From the IMG/VR virus record IMGVR_UViG_3300021399_000113, positions 74,607 through 138,606 of that record: 64,000 nucleotides of DNA; one strand, given 5' to 3'. The notes beneath the pieces were generated by a model that did not search any database, was not told the origin of the DNA, and was given only the letters and a program-made list of their open reading frames with translations. Made by a program: the position numbers and the translations under genes. This document shows, piece by piece, positions 939 to 56,289 of the stretch. Numbering within the stretch: position 1 is the stretch's first letter; each line of letters opens with the position of its first letter. The DNA comes from a virus (taxonomy: Duplodnaviria; Caudoviricetes).

Positions 939-2263
939 TAACAGAGATAACACCTATCAGCTTATTCTTTAATGTATTAGACCATATAGTTGGTACAAAC
1001 AATAAAAAGAATTACATACAGCAGTATGCTACCGAAGATATAAAATACGTTATGCAGTGGCTATACGATACCAGTATAGTCACTGGCATTTCTGACAGTA
1101 AGTATGACAAAGAGGTTGAAGAGGTTCAGCCTTATAAGACCTTAAAAGAATTGTTCTTATACCTTAGCAAGAGGCATACTGGGAGTGATTATGATATATC
1201 TGTGGTTAAATCCACAGCAAAGCAACTGTGTAAATGTGAGACTGATTTCAAATTCTTTAAATCATTATTAACTAAAAATGTAAAGGTTGGAATTGACAGT
1301 AAGTTAATAAATTCGGTATTTCCGAATTTAATTCCGACCTTTGATGTGATGTTGGCTGATAAATACCTTGATTTAGATGATAAGCAATTAAATAAAGTAT
1401 CTAATAATGGCACAAGGGAATTTGTACTACAAGAAAAGTTGGATGGATTTAGGTGCATTGCTATTAAAGAGGGTGAAAGCGTTAGACTTATTTCCAGACA
1501 AGGTAAGTTGTATGAGAATTTAGTTGATGTAGAATCTGCTATTATCAAGACATTTAAGGGATATGACTGTGTACTTGATGGAGAACTTCTAATATCTAAC
1601 AGAGAGAATATTCCAAGCAAAGAACAGTACAAAGCCACGTCAAAGTTGGTAACCCTTAAAGATGTGGAAATTAAAGGAATTACATATAACGTATTTGATT
1701 TATTACCAATTACTGATTGGCAGAATAAAGTTGGTAATAAACCTTACGATGATAGATACAGCACGTTATGTTCTTATATGGCTAAAAACACCAGCAATGC
1801 CATTAAAATCGTCCCTTGCTTATATCGTGGTAACAATCTCGATGAAGTATTAACAAGGCTTAAAATAGCCAAAGAAATGAACTGGGAAGGGTTAATGCTG
1901 AGGTGGGTAGACTCCCTTTATGAATTTAAACGTAGCAAAGAATTACTAAAAGTTAAGCCCTTTAATGAAATGGATTTAATCATTACTGGGTATGAAGAAG
2001 GAACTAATAAAAACAAAGGAAAACTTGGTGCATTTATATGTGAGGTAGAACACCCTAAATTTGGTCATATTGAAGCCAAAGTAGGTGGTGGATATTCTGA
2101 TGAAGAAAGAGAGAGATTCGCAGAAATCCGTAATGATTTAATTGGAAGAACTATTGAAGTGCAATACTTTGAGGTTACTGAAAATACTACAACACATATT
2201 AAGTCATTAAGATTTCCTGTATATAAATGTATAAAAGACATAGGAGTTGTACCAAACAACTAA
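935..2263 (+). CDS. lig: ATP-dependent DNA ligase
   Basis: QEKLDGFR (KxDG adenylation motif), LDGEL, EGLMLR, LLKVK, C-terminal OB domain with SLRFP. Confidence 0.95.
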   Translation: MITEITPISLFFNVLDHIVGTNNKKNYIQQYATEDIKYVMQWLYDTSIVTGISDSKYDKEVEEVQPYKTLKELFLYLSKRHTGSDYDISVVKSTAKQLCKCETDFKFFKSLLTKNVKVGIDSKLINSVFPNLIPTFDVMLADKYLDLDDKQLNKVSNNGTREFVLQEKLDGFRCIAIKEGESVRLISRQGKLYENLVDVESAIIKTFKGYDCVLDGELLISNRENIPSKEQYKATSKLVTLKDVEIKGITYNVFDLLPITDWQNKVGNKPYDDRYSTLCSYMAKNTSNAIKIVPCLYRGNNLDEVLTRLKIAKEMNWEGLMLRWVDSLYEFKRSKELLKVKPFNEMDLIITGYEEGTNKNKGKLGAFICEVEHPKFGHIEAKVGGGYSDEERERFAEIRNDLIGRTIEVQYFEVTENTTTHIKSLRFPVYKCIKDIGVVPNN

Positions 2264-2273
2264 GGAGCATAAA

Positions 2274-2807
2274 ATGATTTGGATTACGAGTGATTTACAT
2301 CTCTGTCATGACAGAGATTTTATTTATGGAAAGCGTGGTTACAAGAACGTTCAAGAGATGAACCACGATATTGTGAAAAAGTGGGACGCAAAAGTAAAGG
2401 CTGAGGATACTGTCTATGTGCTTGGTGATGTAATGCTGAATGATGATAATACTGGACTTGGTATATTATCATCATTAAAGGGTAAAATACATATCATCAT
2501 AGGTAACCATGATACAGATAACAGAATAACAATGTATAAGCGTTGTTATAATGTAGAAGATGTAGTGTATGCAGACAGAATTAACTACAATGGCTACACC
2601 TTCTTCTTAAGCCACTATCCCACATTAACTGACAATCATGATGTGTCAAGACCATTAGAAAAGTGTGTATTAAATCTTTTTGGTCATACACATTCCACAG
2701 ATAAGTTCTATGAGGGAAATTCTCATATGTACAATGTAGCATGGGATGCTCATCATGATTTGATTTCATTAGACACAATTATCGAAGACATTAAAAATGC
2801 GAGGTAA
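2274..2807 (+). CDS. Calcineurin-like metallophosphoesterase
   Basis: SDLH, LGD, GNHD, SHYP and GHTH motifs; start placed after AAGGAG. Confidence 0.9.
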   Translation: MIWITSDLHLCHDRDFIYGKRGYKNVQEMNHDIVKKWDAKVKAEDTVYVLGDVMLNDDNTGLGILSSLKGKIHIIIGNHDTDNRITMYKRCYNVEDVVYADRINYNGYTFFLSHYPTLTDNHDVSRPLEKCVLNLFGHTHSTDKFYEGNSHMYNVAWDAHHDLISLDTIIEDIKNAR

Positions 2808-2812
2808 CAATT

Positions 2813-4030
2813 TTGGAACTGTACAAGCAAGGTGAACATTATACTTTATATAATGGCAGTATGTTGGAACTTAATAATGTAATAGCGGATAACAGCATTG
2901 ATAGTATTGTCTGTGACCCACCTTATGAATTAGGGTTTATGGGAAAATCTTGGGACAGTTCTGGAATTGCCTTTAATCCAGATACTTGGAAAATTTGCTA
3001 TAATGCTCTGAAAAGCGGTGGGTACTTATTAGCATTTGGTGGAAGTAGAACATATCATAGGATTGCTTGCGCCATTGAGGATGCTGGATTTGAAATAAGA
3101 GACACTATTATGTGGATTTATGGTTCAGGGTTTCCAAAATCTATGAATATAGGGCTTGCTATTGATAAAAAGAATGGTGTAGAAAGTAAGATTAAAGCAC
3201 AGAATGAATGGGATGGCTGGGGGACAACGTTAAAACCAGCATTTGAACCTATAATAGTAGCAAGAAAGCCGTGTGAGGGCAGTACCACAGATAATGTTCT
3301 AAAATATGGTGTGGGTGGTATCAATATTGATGAGTGCAGAATCCCAACAACGGACTATTTATATAATCATGGTAATTCTAAAGGCACTATTAACAGTTTT
3401 TCTGTCGGTAATTTCAAGAAGGCAATTAAAGGAGAAAATGCAAGCACTGAACTTGGTAGATTTCCCGCTAACTTAATCCTCACATATGATGAGTCTGATT
3501 ATGATGAAGTGTGTGGTGGATTTCCTGTTGGTGGTAACGCTGTGTATGATAAGTATAATGGGGTTAAACCTTTTGAGGCTTATGATGACGAAGGCTCTGC
3601 ATCTCGATATTTCTACTGTGCTAAAGCAAGCAAGCGAGATAGAGATGAAGGGCTGGATAGCTTTCCAACACAAACAAAAGTCTTCAATGGAAAGTCTGAT
3701 ATGAGTTCAAAAGATATAAAGGACGTTGAGAAGCGGTTCACGACAGAGGGCAAGAACGTACATCCCACAGTCAAGCCAACTGACCTTATGGAGTACCTTG
3801 TGAGATTAGTGACACCTAAAGGTGGAACTGTTCTTGACCCGTTTAATGGGAGTGGTAGCACTGGCAAAGCCGTATTATATGAAAACCTTGACAGAGATAA
3901 AGATTATAAATATATTGGTATTGAGTTAGAGAGAGAGTACTGTGGAATCAGTGTGGCAAGGCTTGATTATGTCGAACAGCTATTAAAACAGCCCAAGCAA
4001 CTTTCTCTCTTTGATACATTGACAACTTAA
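2813..4030 (+). CDS. DNA amino-methyltransferase (N4-C/N6-A, beta-class motif order)
   Basis: DPPY near the N-terminus; HPTVKP and VLDPFNGSGSTG near the C-terminus. Confidence 0.9.
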   Translation: MELYKQGEHYTLYNGSMLELNNVIADNSIDSIVCDPPYELGFMGKSWDSSGIAFNPDTWKICYNALKSGGYLLAFGGSRTYHRIACAIEDAGFEIRDTIMWIYGSGFPKSMNIGLAIDKKNGVESKIKAQNEWDGWGTTLKPAFEPIIVARKPCEGSTTDNVLKYGVGGINIDECRIPTTDYLYNHGNSKGTINSFSVGNFKKAIKGENASTELGRFPANLILTYDESDYDEVCGGFPVGGNAVYDKYNGVKPFEAYDDEGSASRYFYCAKASKRDRDEGLDSFPTQTKVFNGKSDMSSKDIKDVEKRFTTEGKNVHPTVKPTDLMEYLVRLVTPKGGTVLDPFNGSGSTGKAVLYENLDRDKDYKYIGIELEREYCGISVARLDYVEQLLKQPKQLSLFDTLTT

Positions 4031-4047
4031 TCATTGTATGATATAAT
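4019..4047 (+). promoter_or_regulatory. sigmaA/70-type early promoter
   Basis: TTGACA-17nt-TATAAT with extended -10 TG. Confidence 0.85.
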
Positions 4048-4081
4048 ATATTCATAATCAAGATAACGAGGTGAATGAACA

Positions 4082-4522
4082 ATGAGAGATGCTATGATGC
4101 ATGAGTATGGTGTTAGAAAGCCTTACATTGAGAACTTAAATCTTTTCAAAACAGTCTTGCACAATAAGATTGCCAATAGTTTTTTAAAGGATTATGTAGA
4201 TATAAAGATTACCGATAAGGGAAATGTAATTGTAAATTTCAAACCTTTTACTATTGACCTATCAAAAGATGACTACTACGACAGCAGAAAACAGCAGATA
4301 AATGCTTGCAAGCTGGTATATGTCCTTAATGATATTGACTTTGAATGGCTGTTTGAAAATGCCATTCCGCAAGAAGATGAATTAAGAGATGATGAAATCA
4401 GTCAATTGTATGAGGAATTTGATGACTATCTTGACGAGGCATACAAGGTTGAGTTTGGTTATCAGAATAGTGTGGCTGACCAGATAATTAAAAATTTCTA
4501 TATATACTATGGGGATGAATAA
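4082..4522 (+). CDS. Hypothetical protein
   Basis: ORF with GAGG RBS downstream of a promoter. Confidence 0.7.
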   Translation: MRDAMMHEYGVRKPYIENLNLFKTVLHNKIANSFLKDYVDIKITDKGNVIVNFKPFTIDLSKDDYYDSRKQQINACKLVYVLNDIDFEWLFENAIPQEDELRDDEISQLYEEFDDYLDEAYKVEFGYQNSVADQIIKNFYIYYGDE

Positions 4523-4550
4523 AAGAGAACTTAGGTTCTCTTTTTTTTTT
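4521..4550 (+). terminator. Intrinsic terminator
   Basis: AAAAGAGAAC-TTAG-GTTCTCTTTT hairpin with long T-tract. Confidence 0.8.
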
Positions 4551-4618: not shown

Positions 4619-5158
4619 ATGAACTCAACAGAAATTGACCAGCGAATTAGTGAGATTGAAAATTCTTTGAAAAGCCTTAATGGGCAAATAGAGAAATTGA
4701 AGAAAATCAAGGAAGAATTGAAGATGGAACAGGAACGTCTTGATGGTAAACCCTCGATGGGTGAGTTTTACTATTCTATTGATGAAACTGGTTGTATCAG
4801 TGAAAATGTCTGGGGATGTAATCATTGGAATGACAATGATAGATTTAATATAGGAAATGCATTTAAGACATTTGAAGACGCTGAATTTGAGCTTGAGCGT
4901 AGAAAGGTTTATGCACAACTCCGCAGACTGTCTGACACATCTATGGAGAAAGTTGGTAGCAGAAAGAGTCCAGATATTGAAAAGTATACGATTATTGCTA
5001 ATTTAGGCTATACTGGGGGTATAAAGGGCAAAATATACACTTACTTTAATAATACGGATATTGATACAGACATATTTTTTAGCACAGATGCAGACGCTGA
5101 GAGCGCCATTAAAACAATAGGGGAAGATAGACTTCTGAAATATTATTTTAGATTTTAG
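4619..5158 (+). CDS. Hypothetical phage protein (N-terminal coiled coil)
   Basis: ATG after GGAGG; IGNAFKTFEDAE motif typical of Firmicute phage hypotheticals. Confidence 0.7.
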   Translation: MNSTEIDQRISEIENSLKSLNGQIEKLKKIKEELKMEQERLDGKPSMGEFYYSIDETGCISENVWGCNHWNDNDRFNIGNAFKTFEDAEFELERRKVYAQLRRLSDTSMEKVGSRKSPDIEKYTIIANLGYTGGIKGKIYTYFNNTDIDTDIFFSTDADAESAIKTIGEDRLLKYYFRF

Positions 5159-49453: not shown

Positions 49454-50998
49454 ATGCCTCAAGATACAGTAAATGATGGTTTATTACATTTTACTGACGA
49501 GAATGGAATAGAGAAAGCCATATTAGGTACATTAGAAGGTGCTTGTGCAGACTTCATTGCTCCCACTCGTAATGGCAGATTATATAATGATGAACTGTGG
49601 GGGGAAGTTTTTGAAAAGAACCCTATAGTGAATGAGTTATTTGAAAATGGTGGTATCGTTGGTGAATTAGACCACCCAGCAAATTATAATTCAGAGGGTG
49701 TCGAAGACAGAGATGAAAGCGACACTTCCAGAACGGCAATTCTGTTAAAGGAAAAGCCAGTAAAAAAAGATGGTAAATATTGGGCAAAGTTTTTAATTCT
49801 CAATACACCATTAGGTAAGATTGCGTATACATTAGCAAAGGCTGGATTTAAATTTGGTGTAAGTTCAAGAGGGTCTGGAGATGTTCTTACAGATGATAAT
49901 GGTAATGAATATGTCGACCCACTTACTTATGATTTTAAAGCATTTGACTTAGTATTGTTACCAGCAGTTAAGTCTGCAAGGTTAAGTCTTGTTACTGAGT
50001 CATTAGATACCAAAAAGAAATTTAATTATAAAGAAGAACTTACAGAGCAAATCAATTCTGCTGATGATGAGGGTAAAAAGTTAATAACAGAAACCCTTGA
50101 CCATTTAGGAATACGCTATCAATCAACCGATAAGGTTGTTAATATAGAGGATGAGCCTACTAAAGAAGAAGTTGTCAATGACAAGTCAGATTTAATTAAG
50201 CAACTCCAAGAAGCATTATTGAATAACCAAAAGTTAGAAAAAGAGATTACTAATCTTCAAGAAAAATTATCAGTTTGTTATACAAAGGAAAGTCGTAACG
50301 AAGAAGTAATTGAAAAGTATAAGACTTCAATTCAGAAGTTAACCGAGTCACTAAAAATTGCTAAAGTAGAATCCCTAAAAATTCCAAAGTTACAGACTGT
50401 AATTTCTGGTCTTAAGGAAGATATTAATACTAAGGATGCAAAGGTTGCAGAATTAACTGAAAAGTTAAGAGTAAGTGCAAAGAATAAAAAGGGATTAAAT
50501 GAATCTCTTGCTAAACAAGAGAATGATGTAAAAGAATTAACTAATAGAGTACATACCTTATCTGAATCCTTAAAGGAAACCAGAGTAAAGGCAAAACAAG
50601 ATGTTGAAACTCTTACTGAAAAGTTAGAAGACTTAAAGAAGGATTCCGCTATTAAGAAAAAGGAATACTCAGATAAGTTAAAACAGTCCAATGGACTTGT
50701 TGAGAAATATAAATCAATCGCAAAGACAGTTGTAAATGAGTATATTAGTTCTCAAGCGAAAATGATTGGAGTAGGCACTGCTGAAATAACCAATAAACTT
50801 CCTGCTAATTATTCATTAAATGATATAACTGCTGTTTGTGAAAGTTTAAGAGATACAAAGATAGCATTAAATAAATTACCATTTGATACAAGAAGAATGG
50901 CAAATGCAAAAATTGTTGCTAATCAACCAAAAGAGCCAATTCTTCCAACAAATGAAGATGATATAGTTGATGAATCTTTGTTATCATTTTTACGCTAA
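49454..50998 (+). CDS. Prohead protease (T4 gp21-like) fused to a coiled-coil scaffold
   Basis: NGRLY, GELDHP, TP.G, GVSSRGSG, FDLV..P; long coiled coil with many LxES sites. Confidence 0.9.
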   Translation: MPQDTVNDGLLHFTDENGIEKAILGTLEGACADFIAPTRNGRLYNDELWGEVFEKNPIVNELFENGGIVGELDHPANYNSEGVEDRDESDTSRTAILLKEKPVKKDGKYWAKFLILNTPLGKIAYTLAKAGFKFGVSSRGSGDVLTDDNGNEYVDPLTYDFKAFDLVLLPAVKSARLSLVTESLDTKKKFNYKEELTEQINSADDEGKKLITETLDHLGIRYQSTDKVVNIEDEPTKEEVVNDKSDLIKQLQEALLNNQKLEKEITNLQEKLSVCYTKESRNEEVIEKYKTSIQKLTESLKIAKVESLKIPKLQTVISGLKEDINTKDAKVAELTEKLRVSAKNKKGLNESLAKQENDVKELTNRVHTLSESLKETRVKAKQDVETLTEKLEDLKKDSAIKKKEYSDKLKQSNGLVEKYKSIAKTVVNEYISSQAKMIGVGTAEITNKLPANYSLNDITAVCESLRDTKIALNKLPFDTRRMANAKIVANQPKEPILPTNEDDIVDESLLSFLR

Positions 50999-51042: not shown

Positions 51043-51232
51043 ATGAATCTTTTAGAGAAATATAGCAACAGACTTAAAGTTGCTGAGTCTTTATATTCAA
51101 AGACACACAGTGGTGCTCCTATGGACACCAACCAGAAGCTTTGTGTTGCTACTTGCCTTGATAACGTTTCTCGTTATTTAACAGAAGCATTTAACTCAAG
51201 CGAGGGTACACAGAGAACAGATATGGGAGCGT
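51043..51232 (+). CDS. Major capsid protein (T4 gp23-like), exon 1
   Basis: AAGGAG RBS; YLTE|A processing site; joins in frame to exons 2 and 3 (477 aa spliced). Confidence 0.88.
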
Positions 51233-51280
51233 AAACTTATGCGCAATACTGTGGTGACACAGTAGTGTTTATTAAGATAC

Positions 51281-51370
51281 GTGCTTTATAGGACAAAGGA
51301 GTAGCTACCTCGTTAGTACCTACAATTACTAACTTACTATAAAGCATAAGATATTATATCTATGTAGGAG
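51281..51370 (+). ncRNA. Structured leader with anti-SD loop upstream of the intron-1 endonuclease
   Basis: Three-way junction; loop CCTACA is complementary to TGTAGG at the RBS. Confidence 0.6.
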
Positions 51371-51372
51371 AT

Positions 51373-52110
51373 ATGAATATGTATGGTTATGTTTATAAAA
51401 CGACTGACCTAAGAAATAATAAAATCTATATTGGTCAACATAAAAGTGAACAATATGATGATAAATATTATGGGTCGGGAATCATAATTACTTCTTTGAT
51501 AAAGAAATATGGTACACAGAATTTTAAGAATGAGATTTTGTGTGAATGTGCTTCTGCGGAAGAACTAAACGATAAAGAAATAGAATTCATTGCACAGTAT
51601 GATGCAAGAAATCCAGAAATCGGATATAACATTGCAACGGGTGGTGCATTTGGTGATTCTGGTTATCATTTAGGAATGCTTGGAAAAACTCAAACAGATA
51701 AGCAAAAGGCTTGTGCTTCAAAAGCTTGCTCTTACAAAAGGGATAAGAAATTTTGTGAAAGGATGGCACAGCAGACCACAGCCTTGTGGGAAGATGATAA
51801 GTACAGAGAGTTAATGTCCAAGAAACGCAAAGGTAAAATTCCTTGGAACAAAGGGATGACCATAGATGAAGAGACTAAAGAAAAGATTTCCAAGTCAGTA
51901 TCTAAAAGCCTTAAAGATAAATATGAGGCAATGACCGATGAAGAAAAGCTTGCACGTGGTAAAGCAATCTCTGCTGGAAAGAAAGGCAAGGTTGCAGTAA
52001 CTGATGGCAATAAAACTTACTTTGTTTCTTCTGATGAAGTGGATGATTACATACATAAAGGATATTACAAGATGTCCTTACAGAGATATAAGAAACTTAA
52101 TAAACAATAA
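51373..52110 (+). CDS. GIY-YIG homing endonuclease (intron 1)
   Basis: GYVY...KIYIGQH...YYGSG...E...GYN; NUMOD-like C-terminus. Confidence 0.92.
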   Translation: MNMYGYVYKTTDLRNNKIYIGQHKSEQYDDKYYGSGIIITSLIKKYGTQNFKNEILCECASAEELNDKEIEFIAQYDARNPEIGYNIATGGAFGDSGYHLGMLGKTQTDKQKACASKACSYKRDKKFCERMAQQTTALWEDDKYRELMSKKRKGKIPWNKGMTIDEETKEKISKSVSKSLKDKYEAMTDEEKLARGKAISAGKKGKVAVTDGNKTYFVSSDEVDDYIHKGYYKMSLQRYKKLNKQ

Positions 52111-52387
52111 ACAAGGTGAATTATTGGAAACTCTCTTAACATAGTACAGAGTGTTAAGAGACAATCAATAGCCAAGTTCATATATTTTATATGAAAAGGT
52201 TTAACGACTATCGAAAGCATAGTATGTGAGAAATACACATACGAAGAAGTGAGTAGAGTAGGAGATAGTATCTCCGAAGTGCCTTGCATCTTTATTGCGG
52301 TAGCAGTAATAAAGATGGTGATATAGTCTGAACACTATAGTGATATAGTGAGAATAATCGGAAACGGATTATTCATAACACACTTTG

Positions 52388-52424
52388 ATAAGAAATTCTG
52401 TATGACTCTTACAAACGTAGCCTT
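52388..52424 (+). CDS. Major capsid protein, 37-nt micro-exon 2
   Basis: Encodes (Y)KKFCMTLTNVA(L) in frame between the two introns. Confidence 0.85.
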
Positions 52425-52505
52425 TAACTAATCAGAGGCTGTGAGTAGTAATACTCATGGAAATTTAACAGTTACATATTAGTTACATTATAATCATAAG
52501 GTTAT

Positions 52506-52592
52506 AATGTGGGACAGGGAGTTGCAAGCCTTTTTGATTACCCTTAATAATCAAATTACCACATTTATGATATTAAATAAATTTTAAGGGAG
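52506..52592 (+). ncRNA. Structured leader with anti-SD loop upstream of the intron-2 endonuclease
   Basis: Same architecture as 51281-51370; loop CCCTTAA is complementary to TTAAGGG at the RBS. Confidence 0.6.
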
Positions 52593-52600
52593 TTTATTCA

Positions 52601-53359
52601 ATGTATGGTTATATTTATAAAACAACAAATTTAATAACCAATAAAATCTATGTTGGACAAAAGAAATCAAATAAGTTTCTTGGAACAAAATATTTAGGTA
52701 GTGGAACGCATTTAAAAGAATCTGTAAAACATCACGGCAAAGAGAATTTTACTGTTGAGTTTATAGATAGTGCAGAAACCGCTACTGAATTAAATGAAAA
52801 AGAAATTTATTGGATAGATAAATTAGACGCACGAAATCCTCAAGTCGGATATAACATCTCTCTTGGTGGTGATGGTAATACATCTGGTACATCTTGGAAT
52901 AAAGGTCTTACCAAAGAACAAGATGAAAGGTTGATTTGTTCAGAGCAGACCAGAATGAAACGAAGTAAATCGTTGAAAAGGTCTTATGCTGAAGGACAAC
53001 ACAAAGTCAACTTTACTGATGAGATTCGTGCTAAGATGAGTGCTAAAGCAAAGGCAAGACCTCATCTTCCAACTACCAATGGTAAGAAAGTAATAAATAA
53101 TGGAGAAACAAATAAAATGGTTTATCCACAAGAACTTGAAACTTACTTATCAAATGGTTGGGTAGTTGGTAAATTACCCAGTAATAAACCAGCGTGGAAT
53201 AAAGGGTTGACTAAAGACACAAATGAGAGTGTAAACAAATACTCAAAGGCAAGACAAAAGCTAATAGCAAGTGGTAATCGAGTTGGTTTTTGTAATGCTA
53301 AAGGGAATCATTTTTCTAAAGGTCAAAAGGTTAAAGAGTTTGTTGCTGAAAACTGTTAA
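52601..53359 (+). CDS. GIY-YIG homing endonuclease (intron 2)
   Basis: GYIY...KIYVGQ...YLGSG...E...GYN; WNKGLTK repeats. Confidence 0.92.
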   Translation: MYGYIYKTTNLITNKIYVGQKKSNKFLGTKYLGSGTHLKESVKHHGKENFTVEFIDSAETATELNEKEIYWIDKLDARNPQVGYNISLGGDGNTSGTSWNKGLTKEQDERLICSEQTRMKRSKSLKRSYAEGQHKVNFTDEIRAKMSAKAKARPHLPTTNGKKVINNGETNKMVYPQELETYLSNGWVVGKLPSNKPAWNKGLTKDTNESVNKYSKARQKLIASGNRVGFCNAKGNHFSKGQKVKEFVAENC

Positions 53360-53677
53360 AGAAAACGATGTGAAATCGGGGAAAACCTTATTATGGTTTA
53401 GCAATACATAGTAAGACAATCCCGTACCAAGATATGAGAAATCATATAAGGTGTAACGACTATCGAAAGCATAGCCATCAAGAAATATGGTGGTGAAGAA
53501 GCAAGTAGAGTAGAGCCAAGTGGTTGGTATCTATGCGATATTAACATAGAGTAAGCCCATTAAATCGAAGTGCATCGAGTCCAACAAACGTTAATAGGAT
53601 GTTGGATTGTGATATAGTCTAATCTATATAGTGATATATAGAGAATAATTGGACACGAATTATTCGTAATGATAATG

Positions 53678-54884
53678 ACCTAACCTTATTGCTAACGAAA
53701 TCGTACTTGTAAAACCTCTTCCAAGTATGACAGGCTACATCAGCTACATGAAGTATTCTTATGGTAGCACAAAGGGTGGCACTGAAGCTGGTACAGAGTT
53801 AAACAGCCCATTCAAACTTGGTTTAGTTGATAAGAACTATACTTCAAGGTTTGTTCCAGAGGCTAAGCCCGCTGTAGCAAGTGGTGGTGTTGTTGCTGGT
53901 ACTCTTACATGGACACCAGTTGTACCTAATTTCGTAGAATTCGTAATTGGTACTGACGTATATCGTGATGGTGGCGATGGTAAGATTTACAAGGGCAGAA
54001 CTGTTACTACAAAAGACACAACTGATAGTTGGGGTAATGTAACTCCTGCTGGTACAGTTGTTAATGCTGGTACAGAAGTTACTGGTTCTTCTATCAACTA
54101 TCAGACAGGTGCTTATACATTTACAGATGTTACATTAACAGAAGCTACAGCAGTTATGTGTAACTATGTATATGATAACGAAGTTGTTCCTCAGAACGAC
54201 CTTCCTACTATTGTTGGTAAGATGGATGGTATCGCTCTTGTCGCTAAGCCAAGACGTATTGCCATCTACTACAATCAGTTAGCACAATTTCAGGCTAAAA
54301 CGGATTATGGTTTCGACCTTGCTACTCAGTTAGCAGAACAGGCAGTTGGTACACTCTCTGCTGAAATTGATACTGAAATCACAGACTTACTTATTGATAA
54401 CGCTACACTTAAGCCTTCACTTACTTTCAATAAGACTGTTCCTATTGGTATCACAAAGCACGAGCACTATGCTGACTTCACTGAAATCCTTGAGTTAGCT
54501 AAGAAAGAAATCTATGATGTAACACGTAGATTCGTTCCTAACTACATGATTTGTGCAAGTGATATTCTTCCTATACTTGCTTTCATTCCAGAGTTCAAAC
54601 AGGCGTCTACTGGTCAGATAAACGGGCCATATTTCGCAGGTACTCTTGGAAGTCTGAAGGTATTTATTGTACCTCGTACAGATTTCGCTGGCAAGTTCGT
54701 AATTGGTGTAAATGGTAACGACTATATGACAGCGGCTGCCGTCTATGCACCTTACATGCCTATCATCCCAAGTGGTGAAGTAACTTACGCAGATGGTCTT
54801 ACATCTAAGGGTTGGGCTACTATGTACGACCTTAAGATACTTAACCCTCTGTTACTTATCAAGGGACAAATCGTTGCTGAATAA
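53678..54884 (+). CDS. Major capsid protein (T4 gp23-like), exon 3
   Basis: PNLIANEIVLVKP..SMTG; L.AEID.EI; YAPY.P gp23 signatures. Confidence 0.93.
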
Positions 54885-54887
54885 TTG

Positions 54888-54916
54888 TTGACAAATTAGA
54901 CAATTTATTGTATATT
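54888..54916 (+). promoter_or_regulatory. Promoter for the freestanding endonuclease (sigmaA-like, overlapping TTGTATA)
   Basis: TTGACA-17-TATATT. Confidence 0.6.
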
Positions 54917-54984
54917 AAATATGTGTGGGATTGTGGGGCTACACCCACACATTCTACACATATTTTTATATAAAAGGATTGTTT

Positions 54985-56289
54985 ATGGTCAAAGGACAAA
55001 TTGCATACAATAATGGCAATAGAATAATATTTTTGACTGAAGGCGAAGATATTCCAAAGGGATTTGTTCGTGGAGGATTACCTCGTATGTCTGCTGAAAG
55101 ATATAAACAGGCGGGTAGGAAATCCTCGCAGACACAAAAAGATGCTTGGAATAACTTATCACAGGAAGAAAAAGACATAAGACTTTCCTCTTTACATGAT
55201 AGAATGTTTACTGATGAAGTAAATGCTAAACGTGCTGAATCATGTAGACATACGATGTCATTAAAGAGTGAAGAAGAATTGTCTGCTATTTCTGAAAAGA
55301 AAAGCGAATCACTTAAAAGAACTTGGGCAACAAAAACCTCTATTGATAGAGAGAATAGAAGAATAAAGACAAAAGAGACTTGCATAGAGAAATATGGAGT
55401 AGAGTTTCCTTGTCAACTTCCTCAATGTGGATTATCTAATAGTGGTACACATACCAAACCAAATGAAACATTTGCTCGTTTATTAGATAAATATAATCTT
55501 GAGTATGAGCGTGAGTTCCCTTTAAGTAAATATAAATATGATTTTAAAGTTGGTAATATCTTATTTGAAATAAACCCCACGGCTACACATAATTCTACTT
55601 ATGGAATTTATTATAGGGATGGATTAGATAAAAAGTATCATTACAACAAAACCAAACTTGCTTTTGATAGTGGTTATCATTGTGTCAATGTTTGGGATTG
55701 GGATGATGCAGAACTTCTGATTAAAACCTTTTGTATTCCTAAAGAAAGGATTTATGCTCGGAAGTGTGATATTAAGGAAGTCACACAAACAGATGCTGTT
55801 ACATTTATAAATAACAATCATTTACAAGGATATGCTAAAGATAGTATTAGACTTGGATTGTATTATAATAATGAGTTAGTATCTATTATGACTTTTGATA
55901 AGCCTCGCTATAATCATAAATACGATTATGAACTTGTTAGATATTGTTCAAGTAAATCAATCATAGGTGGGGCAAATAAATTATTCAAACACTTCCTTGA
56001 TAGATACAAACCAACTTCTGTTATATCATATTGTGATAGAAGTAAATTTAATGGTAATGTGTATATTGAATTAGGATTTACTGCCGAGAAGATTTCTGTG
56101 GGAAAGCATTGGTATAATATAAACACTAAAAAGCATATCACAGATAATCTTTTAAGACAAAGAGGGTTTGACCAATTGTTTGATACCAACTATGGTAAAG
56201 GAACTTCTAATCGTGATTTAATGATACAGCATGGCTTTGTTGAAGTGTATGATGCGGGACAACAAAGATATGTTTATTATCACATATAA
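54985..56289 (+). CDS. Freestanding Hef-like homing endonuclease (PD-(D/E)xK plus GNAT-like C-domain)
   Basis: KYDF...FEIN...H...VWDW; YARKC...F...HLQG...YEL.RY...GGA.KL...SYCDR. Confidence 0.75.
   Translation: MVKGQIAYNNGNRIIFLTEGEDIPKGFVRGGLPRMSAERYKQAGRKSSQTQKDAWNNLSQEEKDIRLSSLHDRMFTDEVNAKRAESCRHTMSLKSEEELSAISEKKSESLKRTWATKTSIDRENRRIKTKETCIEKYGVEFPCQLPQCGLSNSGTHTKPNETFARLLDKYNLEYEREFPLSKYKYDFKVGNILFEINPTATHNSTYGIYYRDGLDKKYHYNKTKLAFDSGYHCVNVWDWDDAELLIKTFCIPKERIYARKCDIKEVTQTDAVTFINNNHLQGYAKDSIRLGLYYNNELVSIMTFDKPRYNHKYDYELVRYCSSKSIIGGANKLFKHFLDRYKPTSVISYCDRSKFNGNVYIELGFTAEKISVGKHWYNINTKKHITDNLLRQRGFDQLFDTNYGKGTSNRDLMIQHGFVEVYDAGQQRYVYYHI

Follow-up and report, generated by a model that had tools for sequence, protein, structure and literature searches.

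In a 64-kilobase (kb) window of a T4-like phage metagenome record from IMG/VR (IMGVR_UViG_3300021399_000113; 138.6 kb, of which the window covers bases 74607-138606), the major capsid gene, a member of the Gp23 family, is divided into three exons by two inserts. From the evidence presented below we consider that both inserts are paralogous IA-type group I introns, which would be spliced from the capsid pre-mRNA by a guanosine-initiated reaction, and we give this reading a probability of about 0.9. The two introns share a central exon of 37 nucleotides (nt), and each one carries a predicted homing endonuclease gene (Table 1).

Joined as in Table 1, the exons form a frame of 1434 nt, which encodes 477 amino acids (aa) and has zero internal stops. 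In the list of open reading frames (ORFs) the locus appeared as five pieces: 51043-51234 (63 codons, with a strong ribosome-binding site, RBS), the two intron ORFs, 53727-54884 (385 aa), and an ORF from 54925 (454 aa). Translated from 53679, the exon 3 frame matches the Pfam family Gp23 (PF07068) with 92.4 bits (cut-off 24.4; E 5e-26), and an ORF matching Peptidase_S77 (prohead protease) ends upstream at 50998, in keeping with the T4-like gene order around the locus; the succession of portal, protease, capsid, and gp13 was also seen in relatives. The public gene call for this capsid (P0002) has 385 aa and starts with MTGY, consequently exon 2 and the true N-terminus (92 residues) are missed. 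A first-pass annotation of this DNA had proposed the same three exons, assigned the product to gp23, reported that gene callers overlook exon 2 and the N-terminus, and pointed out that skipping the central exon would shift the frame, since 37 is not a multiple of 3; all of this agrees with the present analysis, as does the comparison with intronless homologs that it had recommended.

Since the exons are bounded by stops, few frame-restoring joins are possible. The exon 1 frame stops just past 51232 (GCG TAA), the exon 2 frame is open solely over 52327-52428, and a TGA at 53676-53678 directly precedes the PNLIA of exon 3. Only the junctions of Table 1 satisfy both the frame and the group I rule of U as the last exon base and G as the last intron base. 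Two alternative joins were considered. With the first junction moved by one base (exon 1 to 51233, exon 2 from 52389) the protein is unchanged, but the intron would end in A and the U.G pair would be lost; with the second moved likewise (exon 2 to 52425, exon 3 from 53679) the frame is preserved, F replacing L, but again the intron would end in A. Both were rejected on the basis of group I rules and of the family-wide spacing of the terminal G. An intein or a group II intron was ruled out as well, the inserts being out of frame, with stops, and matching the group I model.

In comparison with intronless homologs, the spliced N-terminus is gap-free at both junctions, reading ...DMGA, YKKFCMTLTNVA, and LPNLIANE across the three exons. 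These homologs include proteins of the isolated phages HSE3 and LIS04 (455 aa) and GXN1 (477 aa), and metagenomic proteins of 473-482 aa (P0005, P0006, P0008, P0010, and others), with residues 1-63 of which exon 1 aligns. P0010, for instance, aligns gap-free as ...DMGAYKKFCLDL...VPNLIAND, and its stretch matching the window from DMGA to LPNLIANE is ...DMGAYKKFCLDLVTLSVPNLIAND... At the DNA level, the intronless locus L005 has GCG TAC AAG AAG TTC TGT where the window has GCG T/AT AAG AAA TTC TGT, the slash being the junction.

Partly intronless relatives delimit the inserts further. Locus L004 (capsid protein identity 88%) contains intron 1, with an ORF of 247 aa, and is without intron 2, so that its exons 2 and 3 are contiguous; together with the homolog alignment, this indicates that the 37-nt exon is real, as the first-pass annotation had it, and conserved. 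In L090 and L092, which come from other samples and are ~95% identical, all three exons and the two introns are likewise present, and only the intron 2 ORF module (window ~52505-53351) is missing. Both intron 2 and its ORF are thus polymorphic for presence and absence, and since one allele lacks the intron (L004) and the other the ORF (L090), the boundaries are fixed independently. Moreover, the recurrence of this layout in other samples means that it is not an assembly artefact, and the presence of intron 2 minus its ORF identifies the ORF as a separable mobile unit. Exon 1 is 83% (nt) and 89% (aa) identical to that of L004, and in exon 2 six codons differ, five of them synonymously; judged from these substitutions, exons 1 and 2 are held under purifying selection. 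A megablast search of the region against the phage collection gave zero matches, denoting that there is no close cultured relative.

To the group I covariance model RF00028 of Rfam (cut-off 50 bits), the core of intron 1 aligned with 57.1 bits (E 3.5e-14; model positions 41-253, at 52100-52350), and with 64.8 bits when its own genome was searched. Among 80 related capsid loci collected from IMG/VR, the N-terminal coding region was split in 12, and RF00028 scored 68-106 bits for 13 of 15 related capsid-gene introns, with no match above the cut-off for those of L004 and L010. A profile built from the 15 introns outside the window (that of L004 and 14 from IMG/VR) was run with nhmmer over the 64 kb and returned exactly two matches, both full length, at 52109-52383 (E 2.2e-54) and 53362-53674 (E 2.2e-49). 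In addition, the alignment of these 15 cores with the two of the window (17 in total) is colinear from P3 to the terminal G. Helices P3, P4, P5, P6, P6a, P7 (pseudoknot), P7.1, P7.2, P8, P9, and P9.2 were annotated on it (73 pairs), and over P3-P9.2 of the 17 sequences 95.1% of the cells were paired, against 37-43% in slid controls. Compensatory, two-sided changes occur at 55 of the 73 pairs, and the covariation score (0.683, against 0.19 when shuffled) was reached by 0 of 500 shuffles. The structure was drawn on intron 1 of the window, which favors the unslid register, while the compensatory changes in the 15 other sequences are independent of that choice. P7 is invariant (GACUAU/AUAGUC), and all model pairs form in intron 1 (73/73) and 66/73 in intron 2. 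The presence of P7.1 and P7.2, with compensatory changes at 7/7 and 6/6 pairs, respectively, assigns the family to subgroup IA. In BLAST, the similarity of the core extends to intron-rich phages, namely Twort-like staphylococcal phages, Bacillus AR9/PBS1, and DNA polymerase genes from rV5-like coliphages.

The splice sites have the geometry expected of such introns. Minimum-free-energy folds of the 5' segments returned P1 unprompted at both 5' splice sites, as GCGU.A with U.GCGC in intron 1 (including U51232.G51241) and AGCCUU.U with A.GAGGCU in intron 2 (including U52424.G52435), and in each case a P2 hairpin comes next, capped by a GNRA-type loop. In P1 of intron 1 the window has GCGU/GCGC and L004 has GCAU/GUGC, a compensated change. 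Directly ahead of the guide of intron 1, CUUAU (51236-51240) pairs with AUAAG (52388-52392), the first five bases of exon 2; by its position, this pairing corresponds to the classical P10 arrangement. Towards the 3' end, the P9.2 hairpin is followed in all family members by 12-13 nt that finish with the terminal G, which abuts the exon; G52387 and G53677 agree with this spacing. Both U.G pairs, the P10, and the terminal G residues had been claimed by the first-pass annotation and were recovered here; two group I introns are likewise upheld by the family profile and by covariation, and with the covariance model, a check that it had proposed, intron 1 scored above the cut-off and intron 2 (34.2 bits) below it.

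From these elements a splicing pathway can be proposed. The capsid gene would be transcribed as a single pre-mRNA of ~3.8 kb, from which both introns would leave through the standard two-step guanosine-initiated reaction. In intron 1, the GCGU at the end of exon 1 would pair with the guide GCGC, placing the U.G wobble at the cleavage site, and exon 2 would be aligned by the P10 of 5 base pairs; in intron 2, the last six bases of exon 2 (AGCCUU) would pair with GAGGCU. An omega G would close each intron 12-13 nt past the conserved P9.2 hairpin, and ligation of the exons would restore the 1434-nt frame of a 477-aa capsid precursor. The ends of exon 2 hence do double duty, its first 5 nt lying in P10 of intron 1 and its last 6 nt in P1 of intron 2, and the exon would act simultaneously as 3' exon of the first intron and 5' exon of the second. 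Each GIY-YIG gene sits between P2 and P3 and has its own RBS. If it behaves like I-TevI, the enzyme would presumably cleave alleles without the intron in relatives infecting the same cell and drive the intron, or the ORF alone, into them.

Table 1. Features of the split capsid locus (window positions; helices as 5' strand / 3' strand).
Feature	Position	Strand	Remarks
Capsid exon 1	51043..51232	+	63 codons + 1 nt; AAGGAG RBS 9 nt upstream; 3' base U51232
Intron 1	51233..52387	+	Group I, IA type, 1155 nt; ends G52387
Intron 1 ORF	51373..52110	+	Predicted GIY-YIG homing endonuclease, 245 aa; start perhaps ATG 51379
Intron 1 catalytic core	52107..52387	+	P3 to P9.2
Capsid exon 2	52388..52424	+	37 nt; encodes (Y)KKFCMTLTNVA(L)
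Intron 2	52425..53677	+	Group I, IA type, 1253 nt; ends G53677; absent from L004
Intron 2 ORF	52601..53359	+	Predicted GIY-YIG homing endonuclease, 252 aa
Intron 2 catalytic core	53361..53677	+	P3 to P9.2
Capsid exon 3	53678..54884	+	1 nt + 401 codons + stop; begins ...(L)PNLIANE
Free-standing homing endonuclease gene	54985..56289	+	Directly downstream of capsid gene, outside the split gene
P1	intron 1 51229-51233 / 51240-51244; intron 2 52419-52425 / 52434-52440		
P2 hairpins	intron 1 ~51247-51264; intron 2 ~52441-52458		GUGA loop in intron 1; GUAA loop in intron 2
P3	intron 1 52112-16 / 52282-86; intron 2 53366-70 / 53573-77		
P4	intron 1 52122-27 / 52165-70; intron 2 53376-81 / 53420-25		
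P5	intron 1 52132-40 / 52153-61; intron 2 53386-94 / 53408-16		
P6	intron 1 52172-73 / 52198-99; intron 2 53427-28 / 53450-51		
P7	intron 1 52206-11 / 52323-28; intron 2 53458-63 / 53614-19		
P7.1	intron 1 52222-28 / 52236-42; intron 2 53474-80 / 53488-94		
P7.2	intron 1 52261-66 / 52270-75; intron 2 53513-53566		Enlarged region in intron 2
P8	intron 1 52287-96 / 52308-17; intron 2 53578-87 / 53599-608		
P9	intron 1 52333-39 / 52344-50; intron 2 53624-30 / 53635-41		
P9.2	intron 1 52352-59 / 52367-74; intron 2 53643-50 / 53658-65		

Several points weigh against this reading. On RF00028, intron 2 stays below the cut-off (34.2 bits; E 2.8e-7), and so does its ORF-less copy in L090, with the same 34.2 bits; 7 of its 73 model pairs do not form, mainly in a rearranged P7.2 region enlarged by ~40 nt, and inspecting the sequence turned up no convincing P10 for it. 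In intron 1, just 4 base pairs join exon and guide in P1, and Rfam gave no match when the whole window was scanned at the gathering threshold. In addition, splicing, the junctions used, its efficiency and order, as well as the activity and target of the endonucleases are inferred from sequence, and the metagenomic record is judged 83% complete, without a known host, the viability of the phage being assumed. Regarding the null scans, which include one of a 4.2-kb stretch with E up to 10 (zero matches), Rfam matches were obtained only with short stretches around the cores, because an ORF of ~750 nt upstream of P3 stops the model from spanning each intron. Regarding intron 2, its group I membership is based on the clade profile (E 2.2e-49) and on the 66 of 73 pairs that it forms in the covarying structure, and not on RF00028. 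The ~40-nt enlarged P7.2 block of intron 2 also occurs in the L004 intron (4880-4945), which occupies the site of window intron 1; a block common to both sites indicates recombination or shared descent across them.

Among the other explanations, an unlikely one accepts the layout and supposes that one intron, most probably intron 2, is not self-splicing, so that it depends on a helper protein or splices poorly, and capsid output is limited or regulated, or exon 2 is sometimes skipped. The weak RF00028 score, enlarged P7.2, missing P10, and unformed pairs of intron 2 are all in line with this view, and it is textbook knowledge that in vivo many introns of group I depend on cofactor proteins. 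However, intron 2 retains all helices from P3 to P9.2, the sequence of the P7 pocket, the U.G pair of P1, and the terminal G; it is kept in at least three independent ~95%-identical assemblies; and an essential, highly expressed capsid gene should not tolerate an inefficient intron.

We regard as very improbable that translation of the capsid protein begins at the ATG at 53727 and that exons 1 and 2 are decaying remnants, severed by insertion of endonuclease genes and never spliced. The 385-aa ORF is exactly what gene callers annotate, and from textbook knowledge the N-terminal segment of T4 gp23 is removed at maturation, which makes the N-terminus partly dispensable in the mature shell. Nevertheless, the start at 53727 is without a Shine-Dalgarno sequence, and an open, conserved frame (PNLIANEIVLVKP) reaches back from it exactly to the 3' splice site; the Gp23 match to exon 3 begins only at profile position 17, thus the family profile continues upstream of that exon. 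Furthermore, exons 1 and 2 are under purifying selection, and both flanking RNAs keep intact catalytic cores. That the split gene is an assembly chimera or a defective phage remnant, as a metagenome assembly of incomplete length might allow, has next to no credibility, since the same exon/intron order comes from other samples and assemblers (ENA ERZ27256958, SRR12529121, SRR13434665), the neighboring portal, protease, and neck genes are intact, and IMG/VR relatives on contigs of 130-230 kb carry similar introns.

Both intron ORFs begin with the GIY...YIG module and are located between P2/P2.1 and P3, and ORF 1 has its stop overlapping J2/3. As the first-pass annotation had claimed, they are predicted GIY-YIG homing endonucleases, with Pfam matches to SegE_GIY-YIG and NUMOD3. 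ORF 1 scores 29.9 bits on SegE_GIY-YIG (PF19835; cut-off 25; 7e-7) and 24.8 bits on NUMOD3 (cut-off 20.4; 2e-5), and ORF 2 lies slightly below the cut-offs of PF19835 (22.7) and PF01541 (17.8); both match PHROG 314, 'homing endonuclease' (E 1.4e-33 and 1.6e-33, respectively). The two proteins are 32% identical (BLASTP 6e-30), with the identity mostly in the N-terminal GIY-YIG domain, and a PDB sequence search with the intron 1 endonuclease gave zero matches.

Introns of this family occur at many sites in the capsid genes of the clade. In the IMG/VR loci they occupy at least 9 positions within the first ~100 capsid codons, with 1-3 per gene in relatives, at sites which in window codon numbering include ~39, 63 (phase 2), 64 (phase 1), 68-71, 77 (phase 2), after 78, ~90, and ~96. 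The site in L025 and L026 lies 2 nt upstream of the window intron 1 site, the second intron of L059 is at the window intron 2 site, and the L010 site is 4 nt downstream of the latter. Three introns were found in L059 and two each in L053 and L071, with internal exons of ~60-114 nt, so the 37 nt of window exon 2 make it the shortest internal exon among the loci examined. In L059 (1500-4600) the capsid gene has four exons, and its group I introns score 93.8, 87.0, and 92.8 bits; the second one is ~350 nt long and ORF-less. In L071, two introns (2044-3213 and 3274-4533) stand 60 nt apart, with cores 93% identical and with guides and ORFs (287 aa and 225 aa) that differ, which has the look of a group I intron core that was recently duplicated or transposed within the gene. 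A further RF00028 match (77.9 bits) was observed at L037:5567-5886, ~900 nt downstream of where the capsid match starts, and introns may also exist in the body of the capsid gene or in the next gene.

The distribution of sites and cores suggests one lineage spreading to neighboring sites. In the tree, the two window cores and that of L004 cluster with support 85/88, the tree being otherwise poorly resolved. Based on this grouping, on the number of sites, and on the 93%-identical cores of L071, it is possible, at slightly less than even odds in our opinion, that the two introns were not independent arrivals and that one lineage has moved repeatedly to nearby sites at the 5' end of capsid genes, via reverse splicing or endonuclease retargeting. 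If so, this clade would constitute a record, kept in nature, of ectopic transposition by group I introns with independent swapping of ORF modules.

The introns of this phage are not restricted to the capsid locus, since a search of its own genome with RF00028 gave three further matches outside the window, by which the genes for DNA polymerase A and for NrdD (anaerobic ribonucleotide reductase) are split. The polymerase gene, of family A, is in three pieces (L007, genome 17934-21183; L009, genome 20504-23665), with matches of 56.7 and 32.3 bits between them and intervening ORFs of which one matches LAGLIDADG_3 and the other NUMOD3. The nrdD gene (L008, genome 51666-55019) is split into ORFs of 237 aa and 406 aa, with an ORF-less match of 53.6 bits between them; the nrdD (sunY) gene of T4 likewise carries an intron.

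A close parallel is offered by the T4 introns of td, nrdB, and nrdD (sunY), which share with the window introns the IA core with P7.1/P7.2, the U.G pair of P1, the terminal G, and an intron-borne GIY-YIG + NUMOD3-type (I-TevI-type) endonuclease with its own RBS, in a T4-like genome where nrdD is also interrupted. However, the T4 introns lie in nucleotide-metabolism genes, one in each, whereas here two introns stand 37 nt apart in a capsid gene. Moreover, T4 intron ORFs are found in P6 or P9 loops, and those of the window between P2 and P3. Landthaler and Shub reportedly described in 1999, for phage Twort, several group I introns in a short stretch of one non-capsid gene, where the internal exons are small, in a genome that contains many introns; in the window, both introns carry endonuclease genes.

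Group I-like introns have been identified in the major capsid genes of mycobacteriophage LittleE and lactococcal phage Tuc2009, and splicing was demonstrated for LittleE by RT-PCR (reverse transcription PCR) and N-terminal sequencing (PMC3706429). Since the capsid protein is the most abundant protein of the virion, the splicing of such introns must be efficient. Those capsid-gene introns likewise follow an exon with a final U, have G as their last base, and contain an endonuclease ORF, and they differ in being single introns, in HK97-type capsid genes of siphoviruses, with the LittleE ORF on the opposite strand (PMC3706429); the window has two introns with same-strand GIY-YIG ORFs in a Gp23-family gene, and its splicing is deduced from sequence. 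Regarding other genes, the available excerpts report two group I introns with embedded homing endonucleases in the terminase gene of Bacillus phage Moonbeam (PMC4299906), and in gut Jug phages a mean of 18.5 group I introns per genome, with many essential genes fragmented and splicing confirmed by metatranscriptomes (PMC12880540). As far as these excerpts go, Moonbeam shares with the window two endonuclease-bearing group I introns in one late/essential gene (PMC4299906), the genes concerned in both cases being others (terminase, nrdD, and DNA polymerase), and the passages make no mention of a 37-nt internal exon or of paralogous twin introns (PMC4299906, PMC12880540). Consequently, neither introns in capsid genes nor phage genes with several introns are new, and the window represents a well-supported further case; the rarity implied by the first-pass annotation was overstated, as relatives with 1-3 introns in the same region also indicate (PMC3706429, PMC4299906). 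It stands out by the 37-nt exon that the two introns share, by their paralogy, and by the hot spot of introns in the capsid genes of this clade.

This split gene escapes both standard gene callers and the whole-window Rfam scan, the endonuclease ORF hiding the intron from the covariance model. Capsid proteins serve as phylogenetic markers and as input for structure prediction, and truncated calls therefore propagate errors. With regard to expression, a top-expressed late protein that depends on two ribozyme reactions sharing a 37-nt exon would be constrained in the order and accuracy of splicing. Furthermore, the many sites of the clade, with alleles carrying or lacking the intron and carrying or lacking the ORF, are material to study how introns and endonuclease genes reach new sites.

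Within exon 1, the residues L46-T47-E48 (51178-51186) belong to a motif (L/M)-x-E followed by A or S, near-invariant in homologs (FLNEAF, YLNEAF, etc.), which we take to fit the L/I-x-E cleavage rule of T4-type prohead proteases. If this motif is used, the mature capsid protein would start within exon 1 and both splice junctions would be retained in it.

Downstream of the capsid gene, the free-standing endonuclease gene matches PHROG 3339 (1.3e-61) and PHROG 559 (HNH endonuclease; 7.9e-51), and DUF7487 weakly. The block that contains it (54970-56269) is absent from L090 and from L091, another ~95%-identical locus. This gene is assigned to the same mobile-element cluster, giving three predicted endonuclease genes at one capsid locus. 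Just past the capsid stop, in 54896-54986, there is a near-perfect inverted repeat (~54918-54966), for which Rfam returned spurious sub-threshold miRNA matches only; its probable role is that of a transcription terminator, or of a processing hairpin, ahead of the free-standing endonuclease gene.

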